Part shown: in pieces, positions 4,901 to 15,740 of the stretch | Layout of the letters: each line of letters opens with the position of its first letter | How positions within the stretch are numbered: the first letter of the stretch is position 1 | Assembly (NCBI GenBank): GCA_000165345.1 | Contig: CM000430.1 | Span: forward strand, 96,001 to 160,000 | Direction: 5' to 3' | Length of the DNA stretch: 64,000 nt | Notes under the pieces: generated by a model | Databases searched by the model: none | Told to the model about the DNA's origin: nothing | What the model saw: only the letters and a program-made list of their open reading frames with translations | Translations under genes and position numbers: made by a program

Positions 4901-6350
4901 AATGATAAGAGGAGAAATAGAAAGAAGAAGCGAAATAAAAGAAAGAAGAGAGATGAACGAGCTCATTTCTCCATCAACTTTTAATTCTCCTTCTCAATAC
5001 TCTTTGGAGTTTTCAGTGGATTCACCTTCATTTAAGTTAAAAGAGGAGGAGGATGGTGTAGGGGAGGAAGATTTAGATAATGGAGAGAAAAGAAGAAAAG
5101 GAAAGGGGGAGAAAAAAGATGTTGAGAGAAAGGATTATGGATTCATGAGTATATTTTCATCAAGTGGAAATTCTTCATTAGAGTTAGTATCTCAAAGGTT
5201 GGAATCAACACGTCAAGATGATTTGAGAGGTGTAGTTAAAGAAAGAGAAATTCAAGGTCAAGCAAGGAATAATTATGGGAATTCATCTCCATCATCTACT
5301 CGTGAATATGTTAATAGGTTACTTTCCTCTTCTTCTTCTTCTTCTTCTTTGTCTGCTTTATCCGATATTTCAGAAAAAGTTTCAATAAAAGACTCTCCAT
5401 ATACTAATTCCAAGACAAAAAGATCTCATAATTCTTATTCAAAAGCTAGAAGATCATTTTCTCCTTTCCTTCAATATTCTGTGTCTTCTTCTTCTTCCTC
5501 TTTACAGTCACTATCATATTCAGATGGTGACTTGGAGATTGATGAACTACATTCTGCAACAAAGTTAAAGATAAATAGAACTCGTAAGGATCAAAATTCG
5601 TTAGACTGGAATTCACCTTCATTATCTCCACAACAACCACCATCTTCATTATCTCTTCCTCCTCCACCATCTTCATTATCTCCTCCTCCACAAGTGACTT
5701 CATCATCTCTACAACCTTCATTATCTTCTTCACCGCCTCCAATATCTCGACAATCTCTATCTTTACCACAACAGCAATCTAATCCATCTTCACCTTCACT
5801 TCCACATCTATCTTTACCTCCTCCTCCTCCTCCACAATATTCGAGTTATAAATCTTCAAATTCAAGTAATAATGATTCAATGATAATAAATCGATCAAAT
5901 TTATCTTCAAAGTTACCTCTTCCATTTCCAATTCCTATTCAACAACAGCCACAATTACAAATGGTAAATCAGGATGTGAAACAATTGTATGATTCAAATT
6001 TCACTTCTTCTTCTTCTTCTTCTTCCTCTTATTTTTCCTCTGCTTTTTCACCCTCTTCTTACTCAAAGAAAATTACTGAAGATCCAAATTTATTATTAGT
6101 AAAACTTGATACTGATACAAATCAAACAATTAAAGATCTTCCTCAAGATCCTTATCATATCTCAAGTTCTAGTCCAATCTTTAAAACAATCAAGACTGAT
6201 TTAAACAATATTCCTAATCAAAACTTTAAAGATGACCAACAAATTGAGTCCAATATAAACATAAAACCCACTCATTCTCAAAACAATAATATATTCACTT
6301 CTTCTATTTCTTCCTCTTCATCCTCATCTTTCCCTTCTCAGTCTTCATAA
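1965..6350 (+). CDS. Giant Sfi1-like centrin-binding-repeat protein, 5' end lost in the assembly gap; C-terminal half is Gly/Glu/Arg and Ser/Pro low-complexity
   Basis: The 4.4 kb ORF runs through the N run; the track start is a TTG, so the real start is unknown. The N-terminal ~900 aa carry over 20 copies of a roughly 30-35-aa repeat, each ending in [FIL]xxW[KR] (FINWKKE, FISWNSL, FKQWRIK, FYYWNNK, FNIWKKL, IIYWRHY, IQIWKQR, IRIWKER, LNYWRKI …). This matches the Sfi1 repeat consensus as I remember it. The family call is from memory, not a search. Confidence 0.5.
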   Translation: MXGXASXVIRXXXXXXXXXXXXXXXXXXXXXXXXXXXXXXXXXXISFQKLYQWKLYINHKYLQIQQFLNSNICRNIIIELRNLSKETKFTIQISDLLYRNFIMRRILNGIIYWKFQSQYQKECRNKYQLLENYINKKLINKIFINWKKECQDYIIYYKFIKSIQLPIKKRVFIIFKGNYIFNKYNYNCIRIFFISWNSLTNKKRILKEKCQNFYQFYILKRLIERVFKQWRIKYYQKLNIYQFYDNIIIKKPMKTIFYYWNNKTIQRLKNEKELTTKIINREKKDYLRMMIIIYKMNKIYYQINFGIIKRIFNIWKKLYMIEKFHRMKLLKQYIIYWRHYSIKRIIYRDKINIFIQERSKRLIEEYYIRMIILYRKRIQIKEKYEYIRNRIRNRNLLKIIQIWKQRFNNRIKKKNDYQYLLIIHNNYILKMSIRIWKERMLKEERYRLIINQEEMKRIYNLKSRILNYWRKIWKPHHYIKVSNELIKILNRIIIHNSFHKLLRITFYSYKYNKDEDKNWINMIRMNNNIIINKRIGYSYYMECRCTSNELIRGCLLLKDNNLWIMNILSKIQEIRNNTIYDMLLRMREYIRIRKNYEKGINDLEKNLRRIILSRVWIEMINNIERIWMIGRLIIIIRNRREERIKRQVLVRWVNKYNENYRNKCIIEYMRRIYGNTIKIKCYLIWSIKFEIIKKKKRLKERYEKYLRVYIIEYTIRRMNEYYLYNKWLIWCKKAYDRIEWVHDFRLKSILFINWRRYSKKQKILRDELYILYNKVKIRKKGYILIEWVNRIRILLRMRNDAENYYLNNIIYRRRFKDCFNIWRGLSLRLRNQKKKIMDYLENKNKNLKITCFKLWRFFIYYRKTRNSRFEKITNIIRLNHLNMMVYRIFYSWKLKMIELRSLKNSIFSFWNSGMGLEMEESGLGVEDGERGGRRGRGVGGEGRVGGRGRGGMGGEMERGGMGGEMERGEMVRGEMVRGEMIRGEIERRSEIKERREMNELISPSTFNSPSQYSLEFSVDSPSFKLKEEEDGVGEEDLDNGEKRRKGKGEKKDVERKDYGFMSIFSSSGNSSLELVSQRLESTRQDDLRGVVKEREIQGQARNNYGNSSPSSTREYVNRLLSSSSSSSSLSALSDISEKVSIKDSPYTNSKTKRSHNSYSKARRSFSPFLQYSVSSSSSSLQSLSYSDGDLEIDELHSATKLKINRTRKDQNSLDWNSPSLSPQQPPSSLSLPPPPSSLSPPPQVTSSSLQPSLSSSPPPISRQSLSLPQQQSNPSSPSLPHLSLPPPPPPQYSSYKSSNSSNNDSMIINRSNLSSKLPLPFPIPIQQQPQLQMVNQDVKQLYDSNFTSSSSSSSSYFSSAFSPSSYSKKITEDPNLLLVKLDTDTNQTIKDLPQDPYHISSSSPIFKTIKTDLNNIPNQNFKDDQQIESNINIKPTHSQNNNIFTSSISSSSSSSFPSQSS
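1997..2096. other. Assembly gap (run of N, with further ambiguous bases at 1969-1984)
   Basis: An explicit N run is present in the sequence. It removes the 5' end and promoter of the downstream gene. Confidence 0.95.
4700..4930 (+). repeat. In-frame purine-only (GA-rich) tandem repeats (two ~33-nt units, then four 15-nt GGAGAAATGGTAAGA units) encoding GGEMERG / GEMVRGEM
   Basis: Direct repeats are visible in the sequence. There is strong strand asymmetry (purines on the coding strand). Confidence 0.8.
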
Positions 6351-6999: not shown

Positions 7000-8415
7000 T
7001 CAAGCACTCATATCTAAAATAAATCCATACTTGACAGAATCAGGATCATTTAGTTTTCGAGGATCAATTTGAGCTCCAAATGTTGCTGAGATATTTTTTG
7101 TAAAATTATGAGTCAAAGAATATGCCATTTTTAAATTATTCATTACTTTAAATCTTAAATCAGTACTCTTCATATTATTAGTCATAGATCCAAAGGAAAT
7201 CTTACCTCCTATTGTATATTGAACTTTATCTGAAAATTTTGTTAAATAATTTTCATAATAAGTTTTTGATACTTTATTTTTGGTGATTAATCCTAATCCA
7301 TTATCTTCAATTTGTTGAATATTATCTTCATTATTATTTCCATTATTATTTTCAGTATTATAAGATATCATTAAGCCTAAAGTTAAATAATTTCTAACTA
7401 AATTGTTTAATATTAATCCTCCTGTAAATCCAGATAACTTATTATTTTGATGATTTGTATTAGTTTGTAATGATAAAACATAATTTGGTGTTAAAATAGA
7501 AATTGGACTTAATGTTGATGATCCTCCTATTCCTTCATATAAATCATTATTATCATTAGTATTATTATTATTACAAATCATACTATTCTTAAAACGTGAT
7601 CCAAAATTTTCTTTCTTATGTATTAAACCTTGATAATTAAATTGTTCATATCCTTGAGATCTTTCATTAATTGTATCTTTACAAGATCTCATAAATAAAG
7701 GTCCTTTAAGCATTAATCCCAACATTAATTTTAATGAATTCTTATTATTATTATTATGGGGTAAATTTATATTTGATGAAGATATCATTGATCCAAGACT
7801 TAAACTATTAATACAAGAAAATGGTCTTAAAGTTATTGTATTACTTAACATCATACCAATACTATCTTTATTTTCTTTATTAGATTTATTCAAACATCCT
7901 AATGTTTTTATTGTAGGAGATATTCTAAATCTTGATTGAATATATTCACCTTGAATATCTCCTCCAATTTCTAAACAACCTGATCCATTATTAGTATTAT
8001 TATATGATCCCAATGAATTTGTTAATTTTGGAAACCTTTCATATTTTGATGTTAAACTTATACCATAATATGGTTTTGTTTTTACTTCCATTATAGAAAT
8101 CCCATTCATATCCATTTTTGTTTCCATTTGTGATGAACATATATTCCATTTTAATGTTGAATTTCCATCCAATGAGAATATTTGTTTACTATTATTATTA
8201 CTATTATTTTCTCCACAACATCCATTTCCATCATTACAACATTTTGACTTATTTCCATTTTTTCCTCCATTAGAAGGTGTTGAAATATTATAACTAAATG
8301 AAGGATTCTTGCAAATACTTGTGAGATTTAACTCTAATAATTTATCTTTTTCTGTTGGATACTTGGACTTAAATAATCCAATTACTTCCTTATTAAAATC
8401 ACCAACTAGTACCAT
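7000..8415 (-). CDS. Eukaryotic beta-barrel porin (VDAC / Porin_3 family-like) with Asn-rich insertions
   Basis: ATG start at 8415. The N-terminus MVLVGDFNKEVIGLFKSKY resembles the VDAC N-helix (…YADLGKSARDVFTKGY). The C-terminus KVMNNLKMAYSLTHNFTKNISATFGAQIDPRKLNDPDSVKYGFILDMSA aligns by eye with human VDAC1 [48 protein letters not shown]. Alternating hydrophobic beta-strand patterning runs throughout. Family assignment is from memory, not a search. Confidence 0.5.
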   Translation of the reverse strand: MVLVGDFNKEVIGLFKSKYPTEKDKLLELNLTSICKNPSFSYNISTPSNGGKNGNKSKCCNDGNGCCGENNSNNNSKQIFSLDGNSTLKWNICSSQMETKMDMNGISIMEVKTKPYYGISLTSKYERFPKLTNSLGSYNNTNNGSGCLEIGGDIQGEYIQSRFRISPTIKTLGCLNKSNKENKDSIGMMLSNTITLRPFSCINSLSLGSMISSSNINLPHNNNNKNSLKLMLGLMLKGPLFMRSCKDTINERSQGYEQFNYQGLIHKKENFGSRFKNSMICNNNNTNDNNDLYEGIGGSSTLSPISILTPNYVLSLQTNTNHQNNKLSGFTGGLILNNLVRNYLTLGLMISYNTENNNGNNNEDNIQQIEDNGLGLITKNKVSKTYYENYLTKFSDKVQYTIGGKISFGSMTNNMKSTDLRFKVMNNLKMAYSLTHNFTKNISATFGAQIDPRKLNDPDSVKYGFILDMSA

Positions 8416-8866
8416 TTTTTTTAATGTGTTTTCTTTTATTTTATATAATTTAAATTGTAAATCTTATTATTAATACTAAATTACTTATTATTAATATTAT
8501 TCTTTTCAATTTATTATTTTATATTAAAATACAAACTGATATATATAATATTATTAAATGTATATTATATTTTTTTCTGTGTTTAAATAAATAATCCCTA
8601 ATTCAATCAAATTTATATTTAACCTTTAAAATTCATTCAATTAATTACTCCCTCTTTATCCAAACAACCAAAAAACTAACCAACAAATCCCCCCCCCCTC
8701 CCACTCCCCCACAAAAAATAAACTATTATTAAAATTATTGAAATTATTAAAAAAAAAAATTATTAAATAGAAAATATCATATTTACTCTATTAAATATAT
8801 ATATATATATCTATATATATTTATTTAATCATTATTCCATATTTTCTATATTAATATTTGTTATTT

Positions 8867-10003
8867 TTACTTTGATAATGTATTTGTTACAATATCTTCA
8901 ATTGTACTAAATACCTGCTTAATCATTTTACCTCCATTTTGATTACTCTTTTTATTATCATTTTTTTTATTATTTTCATCAACATCATCCTCCTTTTCTA
9001 AATCCTTTACTTCATCATTATTATTATTAGACTTCTTCTTTAATCCATCAAAAACATCATTAACCTTCTCTTCAACTCTTTCTAATAAACCCTTCTTTGC
9101 TAATACTCTCAAATTGGATGTATTATTATAATATACAATTTCTGGTGTTTTGATTGGTGATGCTGTATCATTATACCTTTTACCATCACTACTTATACTT
9201 GTTTCATTATATAATGGATTATTCTTAATATTTTTATCACGATTATTATCTTCATTTTCATCATCATCTTCTTCTTCATCCCTATCTTGTACTATAATTC
9301 TCTCATTACCACTCAAACCAGCTCTATTAAAACCTGTTAATGTTGGAAACCTTTGTAAATAATCACTTTCCCTATTCAATAAATTATTAACAGGATTGTT
9401 TCCTGATGAAGAAGTTTGATTTCTTTGCATTAAAGATTCATTAGAATTCTGTAAATCATTATTTTGATTTCCATTAGATAATATTCCATCTTGTAAATCA
9501 TTAATAAATCCAGGTGTCATATTTTCCATAGGAATCATTACATCCATCTTTCTTTCATTTGATTCAGATTCATTACCTAAATATCTAAAATATGGTCCAG
9601 GTAATGGAGCATATGGTAATGGTGAAACATATCCAACTGGTCGTGTAAATACTCCTCCTGGTCTAGAGGTTGTTCTTGTGTATGAATATGAATAATTATA
9701 TGGATATCCTGGCACTCCTGCATATGGATATTGATATGAATATGTATATGGATATTGATATGAATAAGTATATGAATATGGGTATTGATATTGATATGGA
9801 TATGAGTAATACACAGGTTGTTCTACAAAATATGGACGATCCACAAATACTGTTTGATCTCCTACATAGCCTCCTCTTCTATGTCCAAGTGATCTTACTT
9901 CAGTAGTAGAATTCTTTTCTTGTTTTTGAGACTTAACTACATTTCCCAAGCATGCCAATATTAATATTATAACTGTTGTATTTTTTAATGTAAACTTGAC
10001 CAT
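8867..10003 (-). CDS. Secreted tyrosine-rich repeat protein (YPYSYTYSYQ-type repeats), followed by Asn/Asp/Glu-rich tail
   Basis: ATG start at 10003. Signal-peptide-like N-terminus (TTVIILILACLGNVVKS). Residues ~60-110 are almost entirely Y/P/S/T/Q (YYSYPYQYQYPYSYTYSYQYPYTYSYQYPYAGVPGYPYNYSYSY). Confidence 0.5.
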   Translation of the reverse strand: MVKFTLKNTTVIILILACLGNVVKSQKQEKNSTTEVRSLGHRRGGYVGDQTVFVDRPYFVEQPVYYSYPYQYQYPYSYTYSYQYPYTYSYQYPYAGVPGYPYNYSYSYTRTTSRPGGVFTRPVGYVSPLPYAPLPGPYFRYLGNESESNERKMDVMIPMENMTPGFINDLQDGILSNGNQNNDLQNSNESLMQRNQTSSSGNNPVNNLLNRESDYLQRFPTLTGFNRAGLSGNERIIVQDRDEEEDDDENEDNNRDKNIKNNPLYNETSISSDGKRYNDTASPIKTPEIVYYNNTSNLRVLAKKGLLERVEEKVNDVFDGLKKKSNNNNDEVKDLEKEDDVDENNKKNDNKKSNQNGGKMIKQVFSTIEDIVTNTLSK

Positions 10004-10488
10004 CTTTAATACTTGAAAAAAATTGGATATAAATATTGAAAAAAAAATTTCTAAATCTTCTTTATTTAATGTTTAAAAAAAATTGATTTATTTATATTAG
10101 TATTTATTTTATAGCTTCAATTGTCTTTATACCTTCTTCAGTCAATATTGAAACTATAAATATTATCACGATGATAAATAGTATTAATAATATTTTTATT
10201 GATTATTACTTGCAATAAAATATATATATATATATTATCAACTATATTTAATACAATAATTAAAAGTTATTATTATTCTCTTGAACAACCTTCAATTATT
10301 GTTATATATCTGAAAATTGAATTATATTTAAAATAAAAATAAAAATATTTTTATTAAAAATAAAATTCAAATTAATATACAAAAAATAAAAAAAGTAAAT
10401 TTTGTTATCTATTGTCCTCCTCATTATCTTTGGAAATTATTGATTCTTTTTATTACACGAATTTATTGTCCACATTAATATTATGATT

Positions 10489-10514
10489 ATTGCATGCATG
10501 CAATTTTACACGTG
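10489..10514. promoter_or_regulatory. 16-nt perfect palindrome ATTGCATGCATGCAAT plus CACGTG box, upstream of the Tyr-rich protein gene
   Basis: Read from the sequence. It lies ~490 nt upstream of the ATG at 10003 on the minus strand. Confidence 0.4.
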
Positions 10515-10721: not shown

Positions 10722-12149
10722 TTAACTAAATTTAATAGTAGAAAACTCTTTCTCAAAGCTATCAAATCTTTTTATAGCTTTTGATCTATTCAAATTTACA
10801 ATATCCATTGGATTATCATTTGAATATTCAACAAATCCACTCAAACCAGTAATATTCTCAAAATCTGTAAACTTTAAAACAGTATCTAAAAATTCACTCT
10901 CTGATTTAAGTAATTCATTTATAAAAGAAGGTATTGAATATCCAACTTTTGAACCTAATTTGCTTATTAATGGTATAATGTTTTCCTCACAACCTATTAA
11001 TTTATTTATAAAATCTTCAGGATCATTGATTATTCTCATCATCTGAAAATGATGTAAAATCTTATCTTTTTTTTCTTTTGATGCTAACTTTATATTAAAT
11101 ACTACACTTTCCTCTAATATATTGACTAAGTCATACCAGAAATCTTGCTCTTCCATCGGATCATTAAAAACCAATACTATTACTGTATTTTCATCAAAAT
11201 TTAATCCATTCTTTCCATCAATATTTTGAATAAATTTCATGATTTCCCTGCTTGGACGACCTACTTCCATATATTCAATATTATTTATCTTTATCATTAT
11301 ATTATATATCTCAATATGTTTCAAATATACTTGATGGGATATTATCATCTTATATTTAACATTTGCAATACTATTATTCTCTTTTTTAAGTCCTGCATTT
11401 ATTCTCATTTTTTCTTCTTCCCTTTTTTCTTTCTCTCTTTTGCTATTATATATATATTTTTTATAACTCACTATTCTTCCTTCCTCATAACAATCAAATA
11501 ACCAATCTAAATTTACTATTGTTTGGATATTATTTTTTTCTTTAACTTTATCAATAATTTCTCCTTCAAATTCTTCATTATTACAAATAAGTGCCAACTT
11601 TGTAACACTTGCTTTTAGTGGAACTTTGACCAAGTCATTATCATCATTACTTTCATTTTCATTTTTATTGTCATCATCAAATATTACTCTTGCTCCCATT
11701 TGCGTTTCTACAAATGAAACTAAAATACCAATATCATCCTTCTTACGTATATATTTTGGGCTCTTTTCTCTATTATTAAATCCTCCTATTGTTTTACTAT
11801 AACCTATAATATAAATCTGAAACCCTTTCAAAATATTATATTTAAAATTGCCATTTGGTCTAAAAAAAGGATGCCATTCTAATGAATAATTCCATTCGTC
11901 ATTCACTGATAACCATATCCAAAATGGAGTTCTTAATTTCTGATAATCTATACTTGTATGCCTATATCTATATCCTTTTGAATAATTACATATTAAATAA
12001 TCAACATCATCATCCATAATCTCACTATTTAATTCCAAAACTGTTCCCCCATTATTCTCAATATATTTTTTCCTTATCAGATTATTTTCATCATTTTCTT
12101 CAAATCCACTCAGTAGAAACCTCTTATTATTCCATATTTCTGAATTCAT
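10722..12149 (-). CDS. BRCT-domain-containing protein (N-terminal BRCT fold), function unknown
   Basis: ATG start at 12149. The N-terminus KRFLLSGFEENDENNLIRKKYIENNGGTV…VDYLICNYSKGYRY…IWLSVNDEW has BRCT-like spacing (F-x-SGF … GG … hL(I/V)C … W). The remainder has no motif I recognise. Confidence 0.45.
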   Translation of the reverse strand: MNSEIWNNKRFLLSGFEENDENNLIRKKYIENNGGTVLELNSEIMDDDVDYLICNYSKGYRYRHTSIDYQKLRTPFWIWLSVNDEWNYSLEWHPFFRPNGNFKYNILKGFQIYIIGYSKTIGGFNNREKSPKYIRKKDDIGILVSFVETQMGARVIFDDDNKNENESNDDNDLVKVPLKASVTKLALICNNEEFEGEIIDKVKEKNNIQTIVNLDWLFDCYEEGRIVSYKKYIYNSKREKEKREEEKMRINAGLKKENNSIANVKYKMIISHQVYLKHIEIYNIMIKINNIEYMEVGRPSREIMKFIQNIDGKNGLNFDENTVIVLVFNDPMEEQDFWYDLVNILEESVVFNIKLASKEKKDKILHHFQMMRIINDPEDFINKLIGCEENIIPLISKLGSKVGYSIPSFINELLKSESEFLDTVLKFTDFENITGLSGFVEYSNDNPMDIVNLNRSKAIKRFDSFEKEFSTIKFS

Positions 12150-12515: not shown

Positions 12516-13879
12516 TTAAACCATCTCAATTCCTATTTCTTCCATCAAATCTGAAGCCTAAAAATTAATTACATATTTATAATGATTTTATTCAAGTAAA
12601 ATTATTGATCATAATCCACTTGAATTAAAAACAACTTACCTTCCTTTCCATAGATTCTGAAAAAGTGTCCACTGCAGATTTACATGCAGATTTGAGCTTC
12701 TTTAACTTTGCCTGAAATTCAATAAATGATAAATTTTAAAATTAATATTAAAAAAATAACTTACCTGCTTTTTTAACAAGCTATTCTTTAACTCTTTTAA
12801 TTCATTAACTGGAATAATCTCACAATCGTCATCTAACATTTTTTCCTTTCTTGAAATCTCCTCTTTAAGTGATTTATTCTTTAAAATGCAAATAAAAATA
12901 ATTAAAGATAACATTTTAGAAAAGAATTAATGCGTTATAATATTTTATATATCAAATTTTTAAATTTATATTATAAACTTACCTTAAGATTTTCTTGCAT
13001 TATTTTCTCTTCTAATTCGTCAATAGTTAATGGAACACTTATATTTCTTGTTTCTTGTTTAAGTTGTTTAAGCCTCACTTCCAAATCATTCAATTCTGAC
13101 TCGCAAACAGAAATACTTTTATCCAAAGCTTCCATTTCATCCTTGTTTAATTCTTTACAGTCACTTTGGTCTACTAAATATACTTTTTGTTTTCCATACT
13201 CCTTGCATATAAACTTCCCCTCGACAGCAAGACGTTCCATTTCATCAGTTACTTGCTTCTTTGAGTATACATTATGCAAATTATCAACCACATTTTGTAC
13301 TGAATATGGACGATTCTGCTCTTTCATATAGTTAAATATTGCCTCTCCTGCATCTCCTGCTGCTGATCCTCCCCCTGAATTTGCAACATTCCTCTTTGTC
13401 AAATTCTTTGGAGCAGACAGTTTCTTTTTCTTTGCCGGCTTTGTACTTTTATCTTCATCATCAGATTCTAATTCATCTTCCACTGAACTTTCTTTAGATG
13501 ATTGTTTTTTTGGTTTTGCAGGTTTTGAGTTAATAGACTCCCCCCCTTTTTTCTTTGTTGTACTTTTTTTGCCTTTTTTACCCTTTTCAAATTCTTCTTC
13601 TTCTAAATCCAAGTCATTTTCATCATCTTCATCATCACTATCTTCGTCTCCTTCATCTATAAAATCCATTTCCTCATCAAAATCACTCTCAAAATCATCC
13701 AATTCATCATCTTCATCATCAAAATCTGTGTATTTTACAACTTTTCTAGAATTTCTTGATGGTCTAACTTGAGATTTACTTTCCATATTATCATCTTCCA
13801 TTTTACTCTGTTGTGTTTCATCCAATCCTGTTCCTTCTTCTTCCATATTATTACCTTCTTCTTTGCTTCTTTTTACCAT
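12516..13879 (-). CDS. HOP2: HOP2/TBPIP meiotic homologous-pairing protein, four exons: complement(join(12516..12557,12640..12711,12765..12878,12983..13879))
   Basis: Exon 1 (the track ORF 12971..13879) ends …QENLK directly before GTAAGT. The winged-helix block EAIFNYMKEQNRPYSVQNVVDNLHNVYSKKQVTDEMERLAVEGKFICKEYGKQKVYLVDQ matches the human HOP2 N-terminus (ILRYLQEQNRPYSAQDVFGNLQ…GKIKEKTYGKQKIYFADQ). Three further exons are each bounded by GTAAGT donors and Py-rich…AG acceptors, with introns of 104, 53 and 82 nt. Exon 2 (K-rich coiled coil) was checked base by base and agrees with the track ORF 12702..12914 translation. The last exon ends ASDLMEEIGIEMV*, matching the HOP2 C-terminus (…FFEEVGIETDED). 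There is a long acidic/basic N-terminal extension before the winged helix. Confidence 0.65.
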
Positions 13880-14328: not shown

Positions 14329-15255
14329 TTAAGATTTAACTTTGTTTTTACCAGAAACATTTAATCCAATAATAGTCTTGAAAGAATCATAAACCCACCA
14401 TTGCATCCCTGTTAATGTACCAATCATAATAATTCTTGTGCCCAAACCTGCTGTACACAAGTTCTTTATACCGATTTCTCTAGTCATAGATAATACGTTA
14501 ATTCTTTTGGAGCTATTATATGCAGCTTTTCCAAGCTGAGAAATTATAGTATCAGCTGGGTGTGATACAATAGCGCATATAATTCCAGATAAATAGCCTG
14601 ATAAAAATGTTATACCAAGCCTTGATTTCTTACTATATGATTCTTTAGGTTTAGTAAAGACTTTATCATAAAACATTTGATTAATTCTCTCAAAAAAATA
14701 GAATTTTGCCATTGTATAAGGAATTTGACGATACCATAAAGGCTTAATACTTCCAAAAGGAAATTTTGTTTCTGATCTATATTTATACATATTACTAGCT
14801 GATTTTAGAAAAGAGTTTGGTAATAAATCTGGCCTTGTACAAGTTTGCATTTTTATTTTTATCATTTCCATTGGACATAATGCTATGTCTGCAAAAAATT
14901 CTGCTGTTGCTGATGCTCCAAGCCAAATCAATCCTTTATGAGATTCTTTATTTGTTGTTAGAATCTTGCTAGAATATAAATCTTTAAAGTATTCATACAA
15001 GCCATATTTTAACGCACCTTGTGCTGAATAACCAATTAAAGTTGGTGCCCATCCTAATCTCAGTGCCTTTACTCCTTCAAATCTTATTATTTTAGATAAA
15101 GTTGGAACTAAGCTCCTAAATTTATCTGGGTAAACTTGTATTCTGCATTTAGCTACATCTATTGGAACAATTGCGGTGTGGGTTAGACCACAACTTAATG
15201 CTCCACCTAATGCACAGTTTAAGTAATAGTTTACATTTCTTTTCTTTTCTTTCAT
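14329..15255 (-). CDS. Mitochondrial carrier family protein, phosphate-carrier (PiC/Mir1)-like
   Basis: The track ORF starts at a GTG (15264); the first ATG is 15255..15253 (MKEKKRNVNYYLNCALGGALSCGLTHTAIVPIDVAKCRIQV, compare yeast Mir1 …[28 protein letters not shown]). Three Px[DE]xx[KR] carrier signatures are present (PIDVAKCRIQ, PMEMIKIKMQ, PADTIISQLGK). There are six TM-like helices. Confidence 0.7.
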   Translation of the reverse strand: MKEKKRNVNYYLNCALGGALSCGLTHTAIVPIDVAKCRIQVYPDKFRSLVPTLSKIIRFEGVKALRLGWAPTLIGYSAQGALKYGLYEYFKDLYSSKILTTNKESHKGLIWLGASATAEFFADIALCPMEMIKIKMQTCTRPDLLPNSFLKSASNMYKYRSETKFPFGSIKPLWYRQIPYTMAKFYFFERINQMFYDKVFTKPKESYSKKSRLGITFLSGYLSGIICAIVSHPADTIISQLGKAAYNSSKRINVLSMTREIGIKNLCTAGLGTRIIMIGTLTGMQWWVYDSFKTIIGLNVSGKNKVKS

Positions 15256-15740
15256 AAGTAACACTGAATTTTGAAATTTACTCCTCTTTAATAATTTTGT
15301 TTTTTCATTTCAATATATATTATTACTTATTTTACTAATAGGCAATATTCTTTCAAAATTTTACTTTTAATATAATACTACACCTTTTCTTCTTCTAATA
15401 TTAATTATATTAAGATTATATATGTATATATTTATTTAAATATACACATATATCATATCATATCATATATATATATATATATATATATGATATGATATAT
15501 ATATAAATAGATATAATATAAACCTCTGCAGCTATATATGCATGTATTCTTTTAAACCTCTATAATAGTAATTTTTGAATCTAATTATATCGCAAATATT
15601 AAAGCCAACCTGTTTTGCAATCCAATCAATTATTTTTTTTTTTACTACATCACGAAAACATTTTTTACTTTTTCCTTAGTATTTATTATATAATCAATTT
15701 TTCATTTTTATAGTTTTTTTTTCTAGTAATACAATGAGGC

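Follow-up and report, generated by a model that had tools for sequence, protein, structure and literature searches.

Among coccidia, the closest described systems are GAM56 and GAM82 of Eimeria, tyrosine-rich macrogamete glycoproteins of wall-forming body II that give rise to the inner oocyst wall. Their consensus comprises a signal peptide and a Tyr-rich domain of alternating Tyr and Ser, Gly or Pro; N-side RNMG, RxL or RxLG motifs and C-side RRL motifs have been proposed as processing sites that delimit small Tyr-rich wall peptides, and the SYAYSYP unit is polymorphic in copy number (Wiedmer 2017, PMC5718062). Disorder of EmGAM56 is reported in the title of a study cited in PMC3760245. In Toxoplasma gondii, Tyr-rich wall proteins were identified by their composition and not by homology to the GAMs, and the walls, in which peroxidase homologues were detected, autofluoresce (Fritz 2012). 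Here we analyze cgd2_490, a Cryptosporidium parvum gene located in a 64-kb stretch of contig CM000430.1 (hereafter the window; 28% GC), and show that it encodes a secreted, disordered protein without Cys that is found in single copy throughout the genus and carries a module of alternating Tyr residues at conserved positions. An earlier note, made from the letters of this DNA alone, had read the gene as a secreted tyrosine-rich wall candidate of the gam56/gam82 kind.

A genus-wide, cysteine-free secreted protein with a conserved tyrosine module

The coding sequence fills exactly the interval delimited by the earlier note, which had given no strand; it lies on the minus strand as a single exon from ATG to stop. 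The encoded protein of 378 aa is identical to C. parvum Iowa II EAK88888.1 (UniProt Q5CU33, CPATCC_000903), is annotated 'Uncharacterized protein' and maps to ~111.1–112.3 kb on the ~992-kb chromosome 2. The open reading frame corresponds to cgd2_490 because its neighbours (cgd2_500, cgd2_510, cgd2_520 and cgd2_530) fix the CryptoDB numbering. No main-text mention of cgd2_490, Q5CU33, CPATCC_000903 or EAK88888 was found in the searchable literature. The features of the gene, with the evidence for each, are as follows.

8867..10003, minus strand: coding sequence of cgd2_490, 378 aa plus stop (open reading frame list, exact match to EAK88888.1/Q5CU33/CPATCC_000903, neighbours)
9929..10003, minus strand: predicted signal peptide, aa 1–25 (MVKFTLKNTTVIILILACLGNVVKS) (hydrophobic core, AlphaFold2 helix, conservation; cleavage by the -3/-1 rule)
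9881..9895, minus strand: RSLGH motif, aa 37–41, followed by basic RR/KR; putative site of processing at the N-terminal end of the Tyr module (invariant in 15/15 species)
9680..9832, minus strand: Tyr block, aa 58–108 (composition statistics, tandem repeat, conservation)
9575..9586, minus strand: RYLG, aa 140–143, C-terminal bracket of the Tyr module inside a conserved P-x-P-x-P-Y-[FL]-R-Y-L (R140, Y141 and L142 invariant; 15/15 species)
9134..9568, minus strand: variable acidic Asn/Asp/Glu/Ser-rich middle, aa 146–290 (charge, low identity, predicted disorder)
9089..9109, minus strand: third RxL-[GA]-basic-basic site, RVLAKKG, aa 299–305 (R[VIM]L[AG][KR]K in 13/14 full-length orthologues)
8876..9094, minus strand: conserved C-terminal region with two predicted amphipathic helices, aa 304–325 and 357–376, joined by a Lys/Asp/Asn-rich linker (AlphaFold2, conservation)

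The Tyr block contains 22 Tyr alternating with Pro, Ser, Gln or Thr, one Glu, little Gly, and neither Cys, Lys nor Asp. Fifteen consecutive alternating Tyr (aa 66–94) and 5 further ones (aa 100–108) were counted, and the densest 45-aa segment holds 21 Tyr; in 20,000 shuffles of the cgd2_490 protein, alternation never ran beyond 5 Tyr and no 45-aa segment held more than 14. None of the other open reading frames of at least 150 aa in the window exceeded 8 Tyr per 45 aa. Tyr content amounts to 8.5% of the whole protein and 26% of the module. The near-pure Y-P/S/T/Q-Y repeats described in the earlier note are therefore present, with the spacers it named, but they span nearer 50 aa than its ~60 aa. 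Its signal peptide also held up: a hydrophobic core at aa 9–20 and an AlphaFold2 helix at aa 5–27 are kept across 15 orthologues, the cleavage site having been placed by the -3/-1 rule and not by a dedicated predictor. The acidic Asn/Asp/Glu-rich 'tail' of the same note is indeed acidic (aa 146–290, pI 4.29, net charge -13.5) but is a variable middle rather than a tail, since two conserved Lys/Glu-rich helices follow. This middle is indel-rich and predicted to be disordered, and holds 6 of the 11 N-x-S/T sequons of the protein. The last 88 residues are Lys/Glu-rich and include KQVFSTIEDIV, which is nearly invariant among orthologues.

AlphaFold2, run on an alignment of 15 sequences, gave a mean predicted local distance difference test score (pLDDT) of 42 and no fold, with helices only at the signal peptide, at aa 304–325 and at aa 357–376 (the C-terminal pair at pLDDT 50–59). 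No fold search was made with this model, since matches at a mean pLDDT of 42 are meaningless. A Pfam scan yielded noise only (E = 3.9 and 5.8), a PDB sequence search returned nothing below E = 0.15, and neither an adhesive domain nor a membrane anchor was found in the sequence or by the Pfam scan. Two antisense open reading frames overlap cgd2_490, at 9150–9362 (plus strand, 70 aa, Ser/Leu-rich) and 9670–9906 (plus strand, 78 aa, Met/Asp/Ile-rich); they show no gene-like signs and were rejected as genes, being mirror images of the low-complexity coding strand.

Sequence searches recovered one orthologue per species in C. hominis, C. tyzzeri, C. meleagridis, chipmunk genotype I, C. ubiquitum, C. 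canis, C. felis, C. xiaoi, C. bovis and C. ryanae, as well as in three further assemblies. With gastric C. andersoni included, single-copy syntenic orthologues were present in 15/15 genomes or contigs examined, and locus tags place the cgd2_490 orthologue always next to that of cgd2_480. A search with cgd2_480 reached no gastric species, while one with the carrier gene cgd2_520 did, and the C. andersoni orthologue was located by walking in from this conserved carrier. The order proteasome, carrier, Hop2, gene at the BRCT position is maintained in C. andersoni, and the cgd2_490 orthologue comes next (L007:14517–15335, 272 aa). At 28% overall identity it retains a signal peptide, RSLGHGH, VQQPVY, YYPYSYEYHYPYPYPYPYPYPYPYPHAYPYLYPF, PPPPVYLRYL, DLEKEDEE and a matching C-terminal helix module (ILNDVIESIETVVTNVV). 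The family thus covers the deepest split of the genus. When the family profile was run against 1.84 billion representative sequences, only Cryptosporidium was returned, a negative that is weaker than it appears because the library is incomplete: the C. andersoni protein, which the same profile scores at E = 1.6e-11 in a local search, is absent from it. Negatives from this library call for caution where eukaryotes are poorly sampled.

Mean pairwise identity over a spread of seven species is highest in the Tyr block (0.62), followed by the N-flank (aa 26–57, 0.54), aa 109–145 (0.48), the C-terminus (aa 291–378, 0.47), the signal peptide (0.39) and the acidic middle (0.16). Tyr columns of the block are 88% conserved and are substituted only by indels or by V, F or H; spacer columns are 66% conserved. 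Residues invariant in 15/15 sequences include R37-S-L-G-H41, E61, P63, eleven block Tyr, P85, P101, P133, P135, Y138 and R140-Y-L142. The segment from RSL to RYL measures 77–105 aa and in every species consists of 23–27% Tyr, with no Cys, 0–2 Lys and 3–4 acidic residues. The mature protein as a whole has no Cys in 13/15 species and a single Cys in the remaining two. Length differences between the blocks of C. parvum, C. hominis and C. tyzzeri come in two-residue (YQ) steps, which leave the register of the alternation intact. The third site, near residue 299, is absent in C. andersoni, and the Logan sequence P0013 ends before it. In the C. felis orthologue (L010, P0009), a 27-aa Gln/Thr/Lys-rich insertion (VRAQAQTTQIKTQTQPEIKSKEGAQALP, aa 30–56) separates the signal peptide from RSLGH, so the spacing between these two elements is unconstrained.

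Likeness to Eimeria GAM proteins and to other wall proteins

For comparison, 12 GAM sequences were rebuilt from the supplementary alignments of PMC5718062. A motif R[NSL][LM]G[KRS][KR] (such as RSLGKKG and RNLGKRG in GAM82 and RNMGKKG in GAM56) lies 3–10 aa before the first Tyr-rich region in 12/12 GAMs, and RRL follows within ~15 aa of the Tyr region in 10/12, the exceptions being EmaxGAM56_2 and EaGAM56_2, as noted by the authors of PMC5718062. The second module of GAM82 is bracketed again (PRSL ... FYRRLEVP). The Cryptosporidium block is framed in a similar manner: RSLGH[RKG][RH] stands 11–24 aa before it and [FL]RYL 14–32 aa after it in 15/15 proteins. The N-terminal bracket R-x-[LM]-G-basic-basic of the GAMs has its counterpart in RSLGHRRG of cgd2_490, and the C-terminal bracket is in both cases of the type aromatic-R-x-L (WRRL or FYRRL in GAMs, FRYL or LRYL in Cryptosporidium), the exact RRL not being shared. 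When the Tyr block was held fixed and all other residues of the mature protein were shuffled, 0.1% of trials yielded both an R.[LM]G at most 25 aa upstream and an R.L at most 37 aa downstream, a figure that is somewhat optimistic as these distances were set after viewing the data. The invariance of the motifs across the genus is the stronger argument.

Further likenesses to the GAMs are a signal peptide, expression in the female stage, predicted disorder, Tyr alternating with Ser or Pro (YPYSYSYSYPYTYSYSYPYSYSY in EaGAM82, YSYPYQYQYPYSYTYSYQYPYTYSYQYPY in C. parvum), a repeat unit polymorphic in copy number (SYAYSYP in GAMs, YQ/YP in cgd2_490) and a variable C-terminal part. On the other hand, cgd2_490 lacks the ~230-aa conserved Gln-rich helical N-terminal domain of the GAMs and the CxxC after their block, and its spacers are Pro, Ser, Gln or Thr with almost no Gly. 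Tyr positions are conserved in the cgd2_490 family, whereas in GAMs neither 'number or position' is; only the cgd2_490 family has the acidic Asn/Asp/Glu region and the pair of C-terminal helices. Judged by sequence, then, cgd2_490 and the GAMs appear to be built on the same architecture, with membership of one family not demonstrated. The brackets make the GAM analogy look stronger than the earlier note could have known; homology to the GAM proteins is not detectable. By analogy with the GAMs we infer that RSLGH and RYL(G), possibly also RVLAKKG, are processing sites of cgd2_490.

With COWP1–9, cgd2_490 shares female-specific expression, secretion, presence in oocysts and the upstream motif set of the late 'Class II' COWPs. 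COWPs, however, are built of Cys-rich repeats and held by disulfide bonds, whereas mature cgd2_490 is without Cys, has no Pfam domain and is predicted to be unstructured. We rejected the possibility that it is a COWP-like protein, as it has no Cys-rich type I or II repeats and matches no Pfam family above threshold. The small Tyr-rich oocyst and sporocyst wall proteins of T. gondii resemble it in being secreted hypothetical proteins, with 5.5–19.5% Tyr, found in wall fractions (Fritz 2012), but the profile search of the cgd2_490 family revealed no sequence relation to them.

Plant extensins and other Tyr-X-Tyr structural proteins are hardened by peroxidase through isodityrosine. The likeness of cgd2_490 to extensins, by analogy only, lies in Y-x-Y repeats within a Pro-rich, basic, extended secreted polypeptide that becomes, or in the case of cgd2_490 would become, insoluble in an extracellular wall; unlike extensins, cgd2_490 is without Ser-Hyp4 repeats and has no phylogenetic link to them.

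Female-specific expression, the oocyst proteome and the upstream region

The earlier note had proposed expression timing and oocyst wall proteomics as checks, with expression confined to asexual stages counting against a wall role. Published data bear on both, and they show that cgd2_490 mRNA is female-specific and that the protein is abundant in oocysts. In the RNA-seq of Tandel 2019, log2 values in asexual stages, females in vitro and females in vivo are 1.37, 8.56 and 10.70 for cgd2_490, compared with 5.2, 16.1 and 15.7 for COWP1, 1.35, 14.8 and 14.05 for COWP8, and 2.0, 7.8 and about 9.0 for COWP9 (PMC6877471). By these values the shape of the cgd2_490 profile resembles that of COWP9. In a second supplement table of the same study one three-replicate group, presumably sporozoites, stands at ~0.3 for cgd2_490. 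In the R code of Tandel 2019, cgd2_490 appears with COWP1–9 and CCp proteins in the heat map that Fig. 4b devotes to 'oocyst wall proteins', and the supplement lists it without a P. berghei or E. tenella orthologue (PMC6877471).

At the protein level, cgd2_490 is one of the 85 genes of the 'oocyst_proteomics_20' signature, that part of the oocyst wall proteome of Truong & Ferrari with ≥20 unique peptides. In the tandem mass tag (TMT) proteome of excysted oocysts its AveExpr of 21.8 is close to that of COWP1 (22.49) and compares with 19.87 for COWP8, 19.48 for COWP3 and 18.61 for COWP9, TMT intensities allowing only a rough comparison between different proteins; its level is unaltered in a COWP8 knockout (Bacchetti 2025, PMC12548878). 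Since the Tyr block falls in one 67-aa tryptic peptide, standard tryptic proteomics is blind to the block and to any cross-links within it. Collectively, these data uphold a secreted Tyr-rich wall candidate, and that idea is backed largely by published data that had already flagged the gene. New here are the genus-wide conservation, including the C. andersoni orthologue, the Cys-free module of constant composition, the GAM-type brackets and the conserved promoter element. Five 'possible oocyst wall proteins' (POWPs) were reportedly named by Chatterjee in 2010, and cgd2_490 may be among them.

The intergenic region upstream of cgd2_490 measures 718 nt at 15% GC and contains the following candidate element.

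10467..10502, minus strand: bipartite element TGCATGCATGCA-N15-ATGTGGACA, a candidate ApiAP2 (cgd2_3490-type) site plus 'Class II COWP' motif, 464–499 nt before the ATG

TGCATGCATGCA lies at -499 and ATGTGGACA at -472 relative to the ATG, with a CCAAT at -23. The 12-mer TGCATGCATGCA and the bipartite pattern each occur once in the 64-kb window, against expectations of 0.01 and 0. Upstream of the orthologues, the palindrome and ATGTGGA[CT]A are found at -476 and -449 in C. meleagridis, at -375 and -350 in C. felis, and at -490 (one mismatch) and -468 in C. ubiquitum. C. bovis has the palindrome at -347 and C. andersoni has two TGCATG half-sites in a 153-nt spacer, ATGTGGA[CT]A being absent in both. 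The AP2 domain of cgd2_3490, a factor that peaks at 72 h, binds [T/C]GCATGC[A/G], and the motifs of the late 'Class II' COWPs are AP2_1-like, CCAAT-like and A[T/A]G[T/A]GGA.A (Oberstaller 2013, PMC3734150). E2F and GCACAC (Class I COWP) motifs are absent upstream of cgd2_490. It is plausible, from these motifs, that cgd2_490 is co-regulated with late wall genes through the upstream element.

A palindrome, TGCATGCA, is found at other places in the region. One copy lies ~200 nt upstream of the meiotic Hop2 gene cgd2_510 (window 14085), and C. andersoni has one at the Hop2 gene start (L007:11616); TGCATGCA may be a common type of AP2 site for neighbouring female genes. Two further copies, 45 nt apart at window 6601 and 6646, lie between a large gene ending near 6350 (plus strand) and cgd2_480, and the pair is present in all C. 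parvum loci (L001:9351 and 9396). A C-rich tract, CCCCCCCCCCTCCCACTCCCCC (plus strand; G-rich on the gene strand), occupies window 8688–8710 amid intergenic DNA of ~15% GC, just 3' of the stop codon of cgd2_490 and 5' of cgd2_480; the tract is similar to the G-box (G.GGGG) to which the ApiAP2 cgd8_810 binds (per Oberstaller 2013).

On its other side cgd2_490 adjoins cgd2_500, a 'BRCT domain containing protein' gene (window 10722–12149). Two genes away is the TBPIP/Hop2 gene cgd2_510 (window 12971–13879, minus strand), which is female-induced (about 0.7, 6.1 and 8.0 log2 in Tandel 2019). The Mito_carr gene cgd2_520 (Q5CU30, window 14329–15264) is three genes away, and the gene for a proteasome beta subunit, cgd2_530, is nearby. 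The neighbour cgd2_480 (window 7000–8415, minus strand) encodes an uncharacterised, Asn-rich protein of 471 aa whose sequence diverges quickly (36% identity to C. bovis) and whose signal in the oocyst proteome is strong (AveExpr 21.31). Its C-terminus has a weak Porin_3 match below threshold (E = 1.3e-4, 21.9 bits against a cut-off of 28.4), and cgd2_480 may encode a divergent Tom40/VDAC-type beta-barrel of the mitosome.

Possible roles of cgd2_490 in the oocyst

The explanation that we favor, with confidence evenly balanced, is that cgd2_490 is a GAM-like, proteolytically matured precursor of the wall or of wall-forming bodies, made by the female gamete in the late oocyst-building programme and abundant in the mature oocyst. 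Transcription in females would be driven through the conserved TGCATGCATGCA/ATGTGGAYA upstream element, and the signal peptide would direct the protein into the secretory pathway and to storage, probably in wall-forming bodies. In parallel with the processing proposed for GAM56 and GAM82 at RxL and RRL, it would then be cleaved at RSLG-H-basic and RYL(G), possibly also at RVLAKKG, either by a clade D aspartyl protease, since Cryptosporidium has one of the PMV/ASP5 type (PMC8540915), or by a subtilisin-type dibasic protease. The presumed product is a basic Tyr/Pro-rich peptide of ~100 aa (aa 40–142, 26% Tyr, no Cys), freed from an acidic, rapidly evolving carrier region. This Tyr module would be the functional unit, insoluble in nature, from which the proteinaceous oocyst wall or its precursor matrix is built. 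The lack of cysteine bars it from the COWP disulfide network, and it would have to be held by Tyr-based chemistry, whether non-covalent aromatic and hydrogen-bond stacking or non-fluorescent oxidative links. A bolder version, which we consider improbable, is that Cryptosporidium retained or independently evolved the coccidian RxL-matured Tyr-rich wall precursor, and that the module is load-bearing and covalently hardened by Tyr chemistry silent in ultraviolet autofluorescence (isodityrosine, DOPA-quinone or amine-oxidase-type links).

Several observations weigh against a GAM-like wall precursor. The oocyst wall of Cryptosporidium was reported, at the level of the whole wall, to be without dityrosines and beta-1,3-glucan (Bushkin 2013, PMC3760245), which sets the genus apart from that of the GAMs and speaks against the dityrosine cross-linking that the earlier note had envisaged. 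The family profile scored the 12 GAM sequences at ≤8 bits, with composition bias of 18–136 bits, and hence revealed no homology; convergence, or a chance agreement of short motifs, could account for the likeness. RSLGH begins 12 aa past the predicted signal-peptide cleavage site and is PEXEL/TEXEL-like without conforming to canonical PEXEL (RxLxE/Q/D) or TEXEL (RRLxx): as its fifth residue is His and its second is Ser instead of Arg, we rejected it as a canonical substrate of plasmepsin V or ASP5. In sorted females, cgd2_490 mRNA is >100-fold below that of COWP1 or COWP8. The TMT sample was whole excysted material, walls together with sporozoites, and the Truong & Ferrari 'wall' proteome includes many non-wall proteins. 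The ≥20 peptides of that proteome must derive from outside the Tyr block, so the acidic and C-terminal parts also persist in oocysts. Lastly, ablation of AP2-F raised the cgd2_490 transcript by 1.36 log2 and lowered CCp1–3, which places cgd2_490 outside the AP2-F regulon that includes the CCp proteins with which it had been grouped.

The origin of the proteomic evidence, in whole excysted oocysts or crude wall preparations, also leaves a limited but real chance that cgd2_490 is an abundant protein of the oocyst content and not of the wall, namely part of the matrix or of the residual body, a glycoprotein by which sporozoites are tethered to the wall, or a secretory protein of sporozoites that is supplied maternally; the Tyr block would then be adhesive or self-associating. 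Its 11 N-glycosylation sequons fit such a role, as does the further rise of 2.1 log2 in vivo, where fertilised and sporulating stages occur, and another 'wall' protein, COWP6, has been reported in sporozoites too. The mRNA, however, is strongly induced already in unfertilised females in vitro (8.6 log2), the near-zero group in the second table of Tandel 2019 is probably that of sporozoites, and the GAM-like bracketed Tyr module and late-COWP promoter motifs point to the wall programme. A role as scaffold or chaperone of wall-forming bodies appears unlikely. Here the disordered Tyr/Pro/Gln module would condense wall cargo or acid-fast lipids by phase separation or in an amyloid-like manner, with the acidic region keeping it soluble until release and no covalent links being formed. 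Predicted disorder, an aromatic-rich and charge-poor module beside a highly acidic segment, the absence of Cys from the protein and of reported dityrosine from the genus, and Tyr positions that are conserved while spacers vary among Pro, Ser, Thr and Gln are all consistent with this role, but the abundance of the protein in mature oocysts exceeds what would be expected of a transient packaging factor. The scaffold role overlaps with the explanation that we favor and is hard to separate from it computationally.

That cgd2_490 is a surface or secreted protein of the female gamete serving fertilisation (male attachment or a block to polyspermy), unrelated to wall structure, would agree with its female-specific expression and secretion, and a review allows that secreted female proteins may serve fertilisation. 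Yet such genes are described as early female, whereas cgd2_490 rises late and in vivo, its protein persists at a high level in shed oocysts, and it has no adhesive domain or membrane anchor; we regard this role as very improbable. Hardly any credence can be given to the view that the Tyr repeat has no specific function and arose by neutral expansion of low-complexity sequence in an AT-rich genome. The DNA of the block is a 6-nt/24-nt tandem repeat, 23/26 Tyr codons in aa 58–141 are TAT, and C. parvum, C. hominis and C. tyzzeri differ by two-residue steps in copy number, all of which speak for this view. Nevertheless, the block is the best-conserved region of the protein genus-wide while the Asn/Asp-rich region evolves freely, its Tyr positions stay invariant even in C. 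andersoni, where overall identity is 28%, and the indels in the three closest relatives respect the alternation.

The oocyst wall is the basis of the chlorine resistance and waterborne spread of Cryptosporidium, and its protein layer is at present explained almost wholly by the Cys-rich COWPs, of which COWP8 was recently shown to be dispensable (PMC12548878). Because it is female-specific, Cys-free, near COWP1 in TMT signal, genus-wide and invisible in its core to tryptic proteomics, cgd2_490 is an unstudied candidate for a second, COWP-independent structural principle. It also provides the first concrete molecular link to the Eimeria Tyr-rich wall precursors, which are transmission-blocking vaccine antigens. 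RSLG, RYL, the Tyr block and the upstream palindrome are precise targets for mutation, and the hypothesis is within reach of existing CRISPR tagging and knockout tools. Should the Tyr module prove to be covalently hardened, the dichotomy between an Eimeria-type, Tyr-cross-linked wall and a Cryptosporidium-type, Cys/disulfide wall would be wrong. The Tyr module with its RxL(G) brackets would then be an ancient element in the construction of apicomplexan oocyst walls, its homology hidden by fast evolution and biased composition.

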